64,000 nt of DNA from an uncultured delta proteobacterium (GTDB lineage: Bacteria; Desulfobacterota; Binatia; Binatales; Binataceae). The first letter of the stretch is position 1, and the number at the start of each line of letters is the position of its first letter. The notes under the pieces are model-generated. The model did no database searches, was not told where the DNA came from, and saw nothing but the letters and a program-made list of their open reading frames with translations. Of the stretch, positions 14,054 to 49,784 are shown in pieces. The stretch covers positions 1,376,001-1,440,000 of the forward strand of contig CAVRVY010000004.1 in NCBI GenBank assembly GCA_963724765.1, read 5' to 3'. Both the position numbers and the translations under genes were made by a program.

Positions 14054-15328
14054 TCAAACAATCTTGCGCGCGGTTTCCTGGATCCGATCCATCCACATCG
14101 TAAGCGACGGCGCGTAAACCTGCGGCACGCATTCCGCGCAGATGTCGTCGGCGAGCGTGCGGATGTTCCTGAGCGCGTTGTCGAGCGTAACGGCACGGGC
14201 GAAGCCCAGCGGCAGACAGACCAGAACGTCGCTCAGCGTGCGCAGGGCGGACGCGAGGGCGATCAGAATAGCTTCGAGCACCGCCTCCTCGGGCGCGCGT
14301 TGCGGGCTGTAAAGGAGCGCATGGATTGCACGAAGTTCGCCGCCGAACACCAGCACCGCGCTCTCCAGCCGTGTGCCGACTCGTTGCGGCTGGCTCACGC
14401 CCTCGTCGCACATCATCGCGATCGACTGCAACTCTGAGAGCACCAGGTGAAGGTTGGTCTGCACGCGGTCAAGCCGGGCCTCGAAGGTGACGTTGTAGAT
14501 GTCGCGCACCAGCGCGTCCTGGCGGCGCGAGACGAACTTGGCGACCAGCGCGCCGAAGATGAGCAGCCCAATGACCGCCTCGAAGATCGAGAGGATCCTT
14601 ATCGGCCCAATCGGCAACACGTCGCCGTAGCCGACCGAGGTGGTGGTGACGAAACTGAAATAGAGCGCGCTCAGCAGCCCGTCAAACGTCCCCGCGATCG
14701 GCCTGCCGCTATCGACCAGCCCCGGACGGCGCGAAAACCCGGTCAGCCAGTAAAGGCCTCCGCACACCACGACCATCCCAAGCCATACGAAAAAAATCTG
14801 CGCGGGCGAGAGGCTTTCGATCAGATCGAGCAGCGCGTTGCCCCAGTGCCGGCTGCGCGACAACACCGGTTGCTCCGGCCGTGTCCGGCGCGCCGGCGAG
14901 GGCGTGAATTGCGCAGCCGATTGCAGCGCGGGCGGCGGCGACGGCTCGGCGCTGGCTGGCGCGCTCTTTACCGGCAGACCGGCCTCTTTCCAATCGGCGA
15001 TACCACCGCGGTAGTGCCGCACGTTGATATAGCCGAGCTGCTGGAGCAGGCGGACCGCCTGTGCGCCGGCCGTTCAGGTGAACTTCGCGCAATAGGCGGC
15101 GATGTCGGCGTTGCGGTCGGGCAACACCTGCGGCGCGCGATGTTCCACTTCGGCCAGTGGCAGATTGATGGCGCCGGAGATGTGCTCGGCCGCATATGCC
15201 TCGCGCGGGAGCACGTCGACCAGCAGCAGCGTCGTCTCGTCGAGACGGCGCCTGATCTCGTCGCGCGAAATCTCGCGGACTTCCTCCGCCGGAGCGGCGC
15301 CGGCATTCTCAGCCGAGGTTTGATCCAT
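14054..15328 (-). CDS. probable selenoprotein: rhodanese (Cx4U, U85) fused to a 2-TM potassium-channel pore domain, 424 aa with TGA readthrough
   Basis: ORFs 15074-15328 and 14054-15022 are in one frame, separated by a single TGA (15074-15076). Joined reading is ...IAAYCAKFT-U-TAGAQAVRLLQQLGYINVRHYRGGIADWKEAGLPV, a complete rhodanese domain, then TM1, pore LYFSFVTTTSVGYGD and TM2. SECIS-like hairpin follows the TGA. Confidence 0.75.
15031..15073 (-). promoter_or_regulatory. putative bacterial SECIS element
   Basis: mRNA after UGA: upper stem CAGGCG-[GUC]-CGCCUG (15047-15061) with loop G 19 nt after UGA; lower stem GGCCGG/UCGGCU. Confidence 0.6.
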
Positions 15329-15495
15329 ACTCGAACAGAATACGGCGCGGTATGGCGGTTGTCACGGCCTGAGCTTTTTTAGGTTTCGCTATTTTTCCGT
15401 TTCTTCGGATGACTCTTGTTTGCGCCGTGTCCGGCCATGATATGATTGTGGTCAGCCTTCCAAGCGCCGGCCGGCGCGACGGGGTGCCCAAAATT

Positions 15496-16962
15496 ATGGC
15501 AGACGCCAAGCGCGTACTGGTCGCTGAAGACCATCCGAGGACACGGCACGCATGGGCCGAGCTCATCGCCTCGTGGGGCTTCAAGGTCGAGGCCGCCGAA
15601 GACGGCCAGCGTGCGATCGAATTAATCGGGACTTTCGAGCCGCACATCGTGCTGCTCGATCTAAAGCTGCCGGTGAAGGACGGCCTCGAGGTGCTCGGCG
15701 AAATTCGCCAGCGCGGCCTTCCGATCACGACCATCGTAATTTCCGGCGAGGGCGATATTCCCGACGCCGTGCAAGCGATCAAGCTCGGCGCCTACGACTA
15801 CCTGCGCAAACCCGTCGATCCGCCGCGGCTGCGCCAGACGCTCAATAACCTGAGCGAGCATCTCGCGGTAAGCGAAGAGAACCAGCGCCTGCGGCTGCGC
15901 CTGATGGGCGTGGGCGAGCTGGGACCGATCATCGGGCAATCGCAGGCGATGCGCCGCGTGATGGCGCTGGTGGAACAGGCGGCGCCGAGTTCGGCCTCGG
16001 TCATCATCCAGGGCGATAGCGGCACCGGCAAGGAAATCGTGGCGCGCACGATCCATGAGTCCTCGCCGCGGCGCGGCGGCCCCTACGTGGCGATCAACTG
16101 CGCCGCGCTGCCCGAGGGCCTGCTCGAGAGCGAGCTTTTCGGCCACGAGCGCGGCGCGTTTACCGGGGCCGATCAGCGGCGCGCCGGATGCTTCGAGCTG
16201 GCCAACGGCGGCACGCTGCTGCTCGACGAAATCACCGAAATGAAACCCGAGCTGCAGGCCAAGCTGCTGCGTGTAATAGAGGACCGCAAGCTTAGACGGG
16301 TGGGCGGCAGCAGCGACATCGCGCTCAACGTGCGGGTGCTCGCGGCCACCAATCGCGATCTGGCAGGCGCGATCCAACAAGGGCGGCTGCGCGAGGATCT
16401 CTACTACCGGCTCAACGTATTTACCATCACGCTACCGCGGCTGGTGGAGCGTCTCGACGATCTGCCGACACTGGTCGATCATTTCGTGCGCGAGTTCGCT
16501 CGCGCCAATTCCAAGCAGATAAGCGGCGTGGACAACGAGTGCCTGGAAGCGTTGAAGACGCGGCGCTGGCCGGGCAACGCGCGTGAATTGCGCAACGTTA
16601 TCGAGCGCGCCGTGATCGTCAGCGCGGGCCCGCTGATTACGATCACCGACTTGCCTTCCGAGGGCGCGCTTGCGGGGCCTGCGGCGCAAACCGCCGCCGC
16701 GCCGCCGCGGGCGTCCGAAACTTCCGCGCAATCGGCGCCGTCCGCGTCCGGTTCGCCGGCGCCGGAATTGCCGGTAGGCCAGCCACTGCGCGAGGTGGAG
16801 CGGCAGCTCATCTTAAAAACGCTCGAGATGGCTGGCGGCAACCGGGTGCGGGCGGCGGAAATTCTCGGCATCAGCCCCAAAACTCTGTACAACAAGCTCG
16901 GCCGGTACCAGGCGAAATCCGAATCTGAAAAATCCGAGCCCGAGCCGGCCGACGAAGTTTAG
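15496..16962 (+). CDS. sigma54-dependent response regulator (NtrC/AtoC family)
   Basis: Receiver domain (VAEDH, LLDLKLP), [22 protein letters not shown]-terminal Fis-type HTH. Confidence 0.95.
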
Positions 16963-17004
16963 GAACCCGACCGCCGCCACGCGCCAATCGGGGTAATCCC
17001 GGCC

Positions 17005-48574: not shown

Positions 48575-49062
48575 GGATGGGCGTTCCTTTTGCTCACCAG
48601 GTTGGTGCGGCGGAAGTCGATCACCAGCTCGCCGCGGCTGTTGTGCCCCTCGGTGTGCCAACTCACGATTCCACTTTCGGGCCGGCTGGCCGACTCGCGT
48701 TTGTCCAGCACCGTGCTGCGGGCGCTGAGCGTTTCGCCGGGATAGACGGTGCTATGGAATTTCAGATCGTCGACACCCAGGAACAGACCGCCCGCCTCGC
48801 TCAGGTCCTCAACTGAAAGTCCGAAGACCGTCAGGAAAACCAGCATCGGATTCAGCACGACGCTGCCATGGCCGTGGGCACGCGCATAGTCGGCGTTGAA
48901 GTACAGAGGGTTGAAACTGAGCGTCAGGGTCGAGAACAGGCTGTTGTCGCCGTCGTTGAGCGTGCGTCCCCAATGATGCTGGTAGACATGGCCGAGTTTG
49001 AAATCCTCGTAATGATTTCCCTTGGGCCATTTTTTGGCCCGCGATTTGAAATCTTCACTCAT
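48571..49062 (-). CDS. MaoC-like (R)-hydratase, resembling the N-terminal half of mesaconyl-CoA hydratase
   Basis: GNHYEDF, GRTLNDGD, NPLYFN, VFGLSVEDLS, VYPGETL. Confidence 0.85.
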   Translation of the reverse strand: MSEDFKSRAKKWPKGNHYEDFKLGHVYQHHWGRTLNDGDNSLFSTLTLSFNPLYFNADYARAHGHGSVVLNPMLVFLTVFGLSVEDLSEAGGLFLGVDDLKFHSTVYPGETLSARSTVLDKRESASRPESGIVSWHTEGHNSRGELVIDFRRTNLVSKRNAHP

Positions 49063-49289
49063 TCCCGTACTCCGAATTCATCCGCCCATGCCGCTGTGGC
49101 AATTGGCGTTAATGCCGATGCGCCCGGTCATAGGAGCATAGACAACCGGCGCCATATTGGCGAGTTTGGCCCCATCGAGGCAAGGCTGCGATCGCTGAGC
49201 CGAGAACCTGTCTTGGACGGTATCTCACCCCATGGTATCGTCACTAATACCGGACGGATGTAGCAAGAGAGACGCGGGAGAGCACCGAT

Positions 49290-49784
49290 ATGCGTAAGTG
49301 GACGGCCTCGATAGCTCTGCTGGCGGTTTTGGCCCTCGCGGGTGCCGCGCCGGCGAGGGCCGGTGGCGGCTCGTCCGCATGGAGCAAGCTTTCGGCGCTG
49401 CTCGGGAACAAGCATGATGCCGACAACTTCAAACTTATCCACGTCGCTGACCTCGCCGCGCTCAGGGCCGATCCAAATTCGCATGTCGTGATCCTCGACG
49501 CCAACGTCCAGGACACGCGCAACAAATACGGCGTGATCCCGGGAGCGCGGCTGCTTCCTTCCTACGACAACTACGACGTTGCGACGGAGCTGCCGCCCGC
49601 GAAAAATGCCAAGCTGGTTTTCTACTGCGCCAATACGCGTTGAATGGCCTCGCACGGCGCCGCCCGGCGGGCGGTCGCAGCAGGCTACACGGACGTGAGC
49701 GTGATGGTCGACGGAATCAAGGGATGGGACGCGGCCGGCCAACCTCACGACCACGCGGCGTCGGCTCAGCACGCGGCGATGTGA
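49290..49784 (+). CDS. probable exported selenoprotein rhodanese (Cx4U, U118), 164 aa with TGA readthrough
   Basis: Signal peptide ending ARA; ILDAN, IPGA, LVFYCANTR-TGA(49641-49643); continues in frame as MASHGAARRAVAAGYTDVSVMVDGIKGWDAAG to stop at 49782-49784. Confidence 0.75.
49659..49675 (+). promoter_or_regulatory. putative bacterial SECIS hairpin
   Basis: G-CCGCCC-[GGC]-GGGCGG-U; loop G 23 nt after UGA. Confidence 0.5.

Follow-up and report, generated by a model that had tools for sequence, protein, structure and literature searches.

The stretch of DNA analysed here (the window) comprises 64,000 nucleotides, positions 1,376,001–1,440,000 of the forward strand of contig CAVRVY010000004.1, from the genome of an uncultured Binataceae bacterium (Desulfobacterota; Binatia; assembly GCA_963724765.1, 5.4 Mb in 4 contigs). 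Positions in the window run from 1 to 64,000, and other positions in the same genome (G000) are given on its contigs C1–C4. The window contains two genes for rhodanese-domain proteins, here termed gene 1 and gene 2, each carrying an in-frame TGA exactly five residues past the catalytic cysteine, as the initial annotation had stated. Our comparative analysis indicates that both are very probably selenoprotein genes, in which UGA is decoded as selenocysteine (Sec; U in motifs) and a hairpin just downstream is the candidate selenocysteine insertion sequence (SECIS). Read through the TGA, the two genes have the following features.

14054..15328, minus strand: gene 1, 424 codons/amino acids, with an N-terminal rhodanese, a disordered linker, a two-transmembrane K+ channel pore and a C-terminal helical domain
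14981..15265, minus strand: rhodanese domain of gene 1 (PF00581, residues 22–116, E = 1.4e-16), the match crossing the TGA
15074–15076, minus strand: predicted Sec codon of gene 1, TGA at codon 85, after Y-C-A-K-F-T and five residues past catalytic Cys80 (C-A-K-F-T-U)
15061..15047, minus strand: putative SECIS core hairpin of gene 1, CAGGCG / GUC / CGCCUG, first loop base at nucleotide 19 past the UGA
14528..14680, minus strand: K+ channel pore of gene 1 (Ion_trans_2, PF07885, residues 217–267) with the filter T-S-V-G-Y-G-D
49290..49784, plus strand: gene 2, 164 codons/amino acids, an apparently exported single-domain rhodanese
49290..49361, plus strand: predicted signal peptide of gene 2, with a basic N-terminus, a hydrophobic core and A-R-A before the likely cleavage site
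49446..49733, plus strand: rhodanese domain of gene 2 (PF00581, residues 53–148, E = 2.7e-11), the match crossing the TGA
49641–49643, plus strand: predicted Sec codon of gene 2, TGA at codon 118, after Y-C-A-N-T-R and five residues past catalytic Cys113 (C-A-N-T-R-U)
49660..49674, plus strand: putative SECIS core hairpin of gene 2, CCGCCC / GGC / GGGCGG, first loop base at nucleotide 23 past the UGA

The rhodanese domains of gene 1 and gene 2 score 61.2 and 44.2 bits on PF00581, respectively, against a gathering cut-off of 22.2. The cysteine that opens the six-residue active-site loop is present in both genes, as Cys80 and Cys113, and is conserved in the database homologs. The two domains are paralogs (36% identical across 70 residues; E = 8e-8). 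The genes had been described as independent, divergent and unlinked; they do lie about 34 kb apart, but their domains are related, and a spacing of approximately 35–41 kb on a single contig is found again in at least eight same-genus genomes.

The pore of gene 1 scores 51.3 bits on PF07885 against a cut-off of 22.5, placing it in the K+ channel pore family, and residues S231, G233, Y234, G235 and D236 of its filter are invariant in the alignment of homologs (A2). An AlphaFold model, built from 23 input sequences with Cys standing for Sec, has a mean pLDDT (predicted local distance difference test) of 84.4. It consists of a confident rhodanese domain (residues ~19–121), a disordered linker (127–156) and two long membrane helices flanking a pore helix (helices 175–198, 215–230 and 243–309), followed by an all-helical C-terminal domain. 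Foldseek aligned the N-terminal domain with single-domain rhodaneses at a root-mean-square deviation of 1.3–1.9 Å over 105–109 columns; this confirmation of the rhodanese fold by a structure model covers gene 1 only. A sequence search of the PDB returned no close structure, and no Cx4C loop occurred among the alignments shown. The C-terminal cytoplasmic domain (14054–14530, minus strand, residues ~270–424), predicted to be all-helical, has no Pfam match. It contains a C-x-x-C motif (C397 and C400 in alignment A2) that is invariant across the 23 homologs and is possibly a second redox or metal site.

The signal peptide of gene 2 was recognized by eye in the translation, where the N-terminal segment looks like a typical export signal. 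In public databases, the close entries for gene 2 are mostly of ~117 aa, ending at the TGA and called "hypothetical protein" where named, and those near gene 1 are of 314–341 aa (~327), beginning downstream of the TGA and called "ion channel" where named. The expectation that standard annotation would split such genes is thus borne out, and, if UGA is read as Sec, public annotation truncates both proteins.

Conservation of the UGA column and the downstream hairpin

The 41 related genomes compared (G000 plus 40 relatives) include 16 from the same genus, every one of which has gene 2; 14 carry one TGA, and the other two have TGT or TGC at this column. In a scan of one genome per species, 79 of 80 loci were placed, and the column reads TGA in 60, TGC in 14 and TGT in 5, and nothing else. 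Because one of the two search patterns included Cys, any bias in this count is against TGA. Full-length orthologs of gene 1 are present in 13 relatives, 12 of them among the 16 same-genus genomes and one from another genus, and all 14 loci, including the window copy, have a single TGA at the column. In the class sample, 27 of 301 genomes match gene 1 at E ≤ 1e-60, and the 32 placed loci comprise 29 with TGA and 3 with TGC. The aligned full-length database homologs carry Cys at the same column in 28/28 cases for gene 2 and in 21/22 for gene 1 (46–57% identical), the remaining one being without both cysteines. These comparisons show a Sec/Cys pairing at the UGA column in both genes. One genome (G016) has, besides an intact gene 1 ortholog on another contig, a second ortholog at C11:11969–13240 that falls into three overlapping pieces in different frames and looks frameshifted.

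In both genes, the UGA lies within a conserved domain, and the frame is open and conserved both before and after it. Past the TGA the frame is conserved as protein, and synonymous change is free outside the hairpin. The residue that follows U varies, being M, T, L or S across the 79 loci of gene 2 and T, P, G, M, H or R in gene 1, which leaves no codon conserved as a restart site. These observations bear on the alternative that the TGAs are real stops, leaving either pseudogenes or loci that each yield a truncated N-terminal piece plus a C-terminal protein with its own start. Gene callers do give products of 117 aa and ~327 aa, as this alternative predicts, and an ATG directly follows the TGA of gene 2 in the Binataceae genome itself. 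Termination would, however, break the rhodanese domain in its active-site loop, and it accords poorly with a TGA column that is kept in 60/79 and 29/32 loci and is otherwise replaced by Cys codons only, with a downstream frame maintained as protein, and with a codon past the TGA that is not a conserved start. We therefore regard real stops as highly improbable and Sec decoding as the preferred reading.

A bacterial SECIS element, as defined in the bSECISearch literature, is a stem–loop shortly past the UGA, with a G in its apical loop, that is conserved together with the UGA. The predicted 6-bp stems with 3-nt, G-first loops at 19 and 23 nt were confirmed from the DNA of both genes; in gene 1, the extended predicted stem spans about 15031–15071. 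Judged by conservation and by co-occurrence with the TGA, both hairpins appear to be elements of this kind. At the fixed position in gene 2, a stem of at least 6 bp (Watson–Crick or G-U pairs) is formed in 55 of the 60 TGA forms, the remaining five having 5 bp, and in 2 of the 19 Cys forms. The departures seen among the 79 loci are C-to-U changes preserving G-U pairs, and G or U occupies the centre of the loop. Synonymous sites are frozen here: minority synonymous codons in 18 TGA orthologs amount to 7/113 in codons +5 to +11, compared with 208/931 elsewhere, and to 2/103 when only codons +6 to +11 are counted. By comparison, the two same-genus Cys forms of gene 2 carry five synonymous changes within codons +6 to +11.

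The hairpin of gene 1 occupies the same location across orthologs in two pairing registers, with the loop GUC or GGUC, so a single consensus structure fits it imperfectly. Its six helix columns are 89% paired in the 29 TGA orthologs, compared with 32–52% when the partner is slid. With Watson–Crick pairs only, the strict, middle and lax predicates pass 10, 14 and 18 of the 29 TGA forms, and 0, 0 and 1 of the 3 Cys forms, respectively; an equivalent 6-bp hairpin is found in 0/3 Cys forms.

The strict predicate requires a 6-bp Watson–Crick stem and a 3-nt loop with G first, the loop starting 17–25 nt downstream. Of the 1169 terminal TGAs in the Binataceae genome, 1 is followed by such a hairpin, as is 1 of the 1247 other stops; within long open reading frames (ORFs), 172 of 84,679 internal codons are. 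The predicate was set after both hairpins were known, and laxer predicates match 0.9–4.2%. Terminal TGAs had been proposed as the null for this comparison, and the outcome favours recoding.

Decoding machinery and other selenoprotein-type genes

The genome contains selA, selB, selC and selD. The search for tRNAs with a UCA anticodon, which had been suggested as a check, returned a tRNA-Sec(UCA) scoring 70.2 bits on Rfam RF01852. SelA scores 517 bits, SelB 383 bits (over its curated cut-off, with six SelB-family matches overall) and SelD 388 bits, the last being of the Sec type with one in-frame TGA of its own.

UGA might instead be reassigned throughout this organism, or leak, being read for example as Trp or Gly. 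Such decoding could draw on a 74-nt tRNA-like gene with the anticodon UCA, which does exist in the genome. Yet TGA is the commonest stop (1169 of 2417 long, well-framed ORFs end in it), which shows that the code is not reassigned, and the genome has a gene for an RF2-type release factor (L070). Moreover, only two of the 20 rhodanese-domain matches in this genome, gene 1 and gene 2 themselves, have a TGA, and the homologs have Cys at the column, never Trp or Gly. We consider the probability of such a reassignment negligible.

The 74-nt gene (C1:1040840–1040913) is one of two odd tRNA-like genes lying side by side at C1:1040721–1040913 on the minus strand. ARAGORN reports it as SeC(tca); it scores 51 bits on RF00005 and has an ordinary tRNA shape, but its UCA is preceded by A and followed by C, which makes the anticodon loop atypical. 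Its neighbour is 95 nt long and class-II-like, with an oversized anticodon loop.

UGA might alternatively be read as Cys, by a tRNA-Sec-shaped tRNA-Cys of the selC* type that a SelB-like factor brings to the same hairpin. Among the systems covered in the available part of Mukai et al. (PMC5389517) are tRNA-Sec-like tRNA-Cys species with GCA or UCA, the UCA form of which read opal as Cys in E. coli, so opal decoding by such a tRNA is a real phenomenon. The Binataceae genome also has a tRNA-Sec-like tRNA-Cys (61.9 bits on RF01852, C4:64275–64365). Its anticodon is GCA, however, which reads UGC and UGU and not UGA, and none of the six SelB-family matches is near it; on both counts it falls outside the opal-decoding system of that paper (PMC5389517), in which a tRNA of this shape has the anticodon UCA and selB*/cysS* as neighbours. 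The initial annotation had raised SECIS-directed Cys insertion by a UCA tRNA, and this is not supported: the only tRNA-Sec-shaped UCA tRNA is the ordinary tRNA-Sec, which the presence of SelA and SelD makes convertible to Sec-tRNA, and the 74-nt UCA gene, ordinary in shape and odd in its anticodon loop, is not expected to be a SelB substrate. Reading of these UGAs as Cys is accordingly very unlikely, and selenocysteine remains the preferred residue.

The GCA tRNA itself, on the minus strand of C4, is 91 nt long, scores over the RF01852 gathering threshold and has a U discriminator base by eye, resembling the selC* tRNA-Cys class as far as the available text of PMC5389517 describes it. No SelB-family match lies near this tRNA at 64 kb of C4 among the six in the genome, cysS* not having been searched. 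A normal 76-nt tRNA-Cys(GCA) is encoded at C1:1125925–1126000.

Genes of known selenoprotein types elsewhere in the genome share the hairpin geometry of the two rhodaneses. A scan for in-frame TGA codons with coding-like composition on both sides and a downstream hairpin gave 43 candidates; SelD, with its Sec near the N-terminus, falls outside the scan by design. Pfam was run on the 20 candidates with stems of at least 6 bp, with 21 candidates with 5-bp stems outside this set. These 20 comprise seven selenoprotein types, eight cases of two neighbouring genes in one frame, and five without a Pfam match. The seven types are UGSC, Prx/DsbD_N (UxxC), CMD (CxxU), two GrdB-like (UxxC), Rdx/SelW-like (CxxU) and Prx-like (UxxC), and in all seven the TGA is at the expected motif. 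Together with SelD they are located as follows.

C1:1306470–1307090 (plus), C2:97580–98695 (minus), C3:217885–218808 (plus), C3:1055550–1056482 (plus): four of the eight loci that hold the seven selenoprotein-type genes and Sec-type SelD
C3:877832–878200 (minus), C3:1569091–1570437 (minus), C4:1467403–1468332 (minus), C3:1462704–1463630 (minus): the other four of these eight loci

The seven types and the two rhodaneses have stems of 6–8 bp and 3-nt loops beginning 19–23 nt past the UGA; the nine loops read GUC in five cases, GGC in two, and GUU and GUG in one each. This geometry (stem of at least 6 bp, G-first 3-nt loop, 19–23 nt) occurs in none of the false positives of the scan, and every candidate with it besides the rhodaneses (7/7) is a known selenoprotein type. 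The hairpins of the two GrdB-like genes are almost identical. This uncultured soil Binataceae would accordingly have at least ten selenoprotein-type genes, nine by the scan and SelD, and the stereotyped SECIS (stem of at least 6 bp, loop G-[U/G]-N, 19–23 nt past the UGA) may be used to find the remaining ones. The machinery, the TGA/Cys conservation, the TGA-linked hairpin and the seven sister genes all favour programmed UGA decoding, as had been proposed.

Several points weigh against this reading and its functional extension. The folding energy of the 60 nt past the UGA is unexceptional compared with shuffles (z 0.13 and –1.11); with no signal in these scores, folding energy was dropped as evidence, thermodynamic stability alone being uninformative. 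The earlier caveat that GC-rich DNA forms hairpins easily is therefore fair for stability but not for the specific geometry, which is rare in the genome by the counts given above. Covariation in the gene 1 helix is not significant, with one double-change pair and 83 of 500 shuffles reaching the score; because it does not exceed the shuffles, the support for this helix is conservation and not compensation. Even the lax Watson–Crick predicate is met by only 18 of the 29 gene 1 TGA forms, the others needing G-U pairs or a bulge, and the gene 1 Cys-form DNAs number three. In addition, the related genomes in the ortholog counts are non-independent samples, and the motif search placed 32 of 35 gene 1 and 79 of 80 gene 2 loci, the unplaced three and one being excluded. 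All of the evidence is at the level of sequence, so selenium in the products is a prediction, and the resolving Sec and the channel-sensor role considered below are suggested by loop position and analogy.

Relationship to known rhodanese selenoproteins

The top selenoprotein-specific NCBIfam match for both window proteins is TsoB (NF045694), which reportedly comes from Haft and Tolstoy in 2025. At 46–48.5 bits against a cut-off of 805, neither window protein belongs to this family, and only the second Sec column is shared. TsoB has two Sec residues (Ux4U), whereas the window proteins have one Sec together with a catalytic Cys. The DsbD-like portion of TsoB, membrane and thioredoxin, is absent from both, and their architectures differ from it, one being a stand-alone exported domain and the other a K+ channel fusion. 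In BLASTP alignments, with 43% identity over 61 residues for gene 2 and 34% over 116 for gene 1, the first U of TsoB is placed opposite the catalytic Cys of each window protein, and the second opposite their U. In six TsoB loci taken from the phylum, the rhodanese domain reads V-F-Y-U-A-G-L-[TA]-U, and the hairpin past the second TsoB TGA covers, by eye, the same A-A-R codons as that of gene 2. True TsoB genes, with two TGAs and 847–1012 bits (over the cut-off), occur in 20 of 301 sampled phylum genomes. The Binataceae genome itself has no TsoB, its best match (C3:859271–860473, 420 bits) having no TGA and covering the DsbD-like part only.

TsoB (UxxxxU) is form 5 of the five rhodanese-like selenoprotein forms in a table of a 2026 review (PMC13188914), the available part of which gives the others as UxxS, UxxG, CxU (NF041203) and UxxG. 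The third form, rhodanese_LYCAU (NF041203), is also rhodanese-related and, like the window proteins, keeps the catalytic Cys with a Sec downstream. Its Sec is two residues past the Cys, compared with five (C-x4-U) in the window proteins, which at 36.3–39.9 bits against a cut-off of 115 are not members of that family.

The Sec position is also widespread in the phylum. With the gene 1 domain as query, 401 genomes gave 37 TGA-bearing matches, and among the 20 inspected, mostly better-scoring ones, 18 have Cys-x4-TGA at the same column (e.g. C-G-G-F-R-U-V-L-S, C-R-G-Y-D-U and C-E-G-P-R-U); the other two have TGA at the catalytic Cys (V-Y-U-A-S-G) or C-x-TGA (Y-C-T-U) (loci L201 and L216). Loop position +5 is thus a recurrent site of Sec in this large phylum. 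The phylum Cx4U genes are only 28–41% identical to the window genes. The letters after U, U-M-A-S in gene 2 and U-T-A-G in gene 1 (U-P-A-G in most orthologs), fit the strings UxxS (form 1) and UxxG (forms 2 and 4) of the review (PMC13188914). By its motif strings (U-V-L-S, U-M-A-S), the widespread Cx4U column probably includes form 1, UxxS, and the phylum genes probably also include form 2, UxxG, again as a match of motif strings only.

The sulfur-only Cys-x4-Cys homologs have the same loop with Cys at the Sec place, and differ in having no TGA and no conserved hairpin. A loop of this type (C-R-G-P-Y-C) also occurs, in relatives, in ArsR-type regulators fused to rhodanese (L053, L058, L060, L061 and L065), the TGAs of which are ordinary stops. 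The loop of MoeZ-type relatives reads C-A-G-G-T-R, so the TGA occupies the place of the loop-closing Arg, five past the catalytic Cys.

On these alignments, the Sec column is not new, being shared with the second Sec of TsoB and with the phylum Cx4U genes. The novelty lies in the two members, one a Binataceae rhodanese that is exported, the other a fusion of rhodanese and K+ channel. The proposed family of Cx4U rhodaneses holds in that one member is channel-fused and one exported, and is limited to 2 of the 20 domain matches in this genome. In the literature searched, we found no paper with 'CxxxxU' or 'Cx4U', none relevantly joining rhodanese, selenoprotein and potassium channel, and no description of either family as such or of any selenoprotein ion channel. 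The word 'channel' is absent from the main text of the review (PMC13188914).

Proposed mechanism and function of the Cys-x4-Sec pair

In the mechanism we propose, the hairpin just past the UGA would act as a bacterial SECIS element that recruits SelB with Sec-tRNA(Sec, UCA), so that Sec is inserted instead of termination. The Sec would close the rhodanese active-site loop as its sixth and final residue, the usual place of Arg or Thr, forming a Cys-x4-Sec pair where the sulfur-only homologs form Cys-x4-Cys. There it may serve as a resolving or relay partner that attacks the persulfide of the catalytic Cys or makes a selenenylsulfide with it. On this view the domain would not be a plain thiosulfate sulfurtransferase but would function as a relay, either redox or for sulfane sulfur (or selenium). 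The relay of gene 2 would operate in the periplasm, and the rhodanese of gene 1 would be positioned at the cytoplasmic side of a K+ channel. By analogy, the gene 1 rhodanese is most likely a redox or sulfur-sensing regulatory domain of the channel.

The K+ channel fusion is the most interesting part of these findings. If such a channel does carry a selenium-based sensor, a link between sulfur/selenium redox chemistry and ion flux would become directly testable. More broadly, the rhodanese selenoproteins would gain a periplasmic and a channel-linked member, and the public truncation would lose the rhodanese domain, its active site and, for the channel, the entire regulatory domain. A bolder extension, which we offer only tentatively and consider rather unlikely, is that gene 1 is the first Sec-containing ion channel, its Cys-x4-Sec domain being a selenium-based sulfane-sulfur/redox sensor that gates the K+ pore, possibly with the C-x-x-C motif; Cx4U and Ux4U rhodaneses (these two, TsoB and many unannotated ones) would then form one clade of thiol-selenol oxidoreductases, not sulfurtransferases, that annotation systematically truncates.

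The gene neighbourhoods of gene 1 and gene 2 yield no additional functional lead. Gene 1 is flanked by a divergent sigma-54-dependent response regulator and a HAMP histidine kinase (15409–18825, plus strand), and downstream of gene 2 lie an OPT-family transporter and a Fur-family regulator (49870–52230, plus strand).

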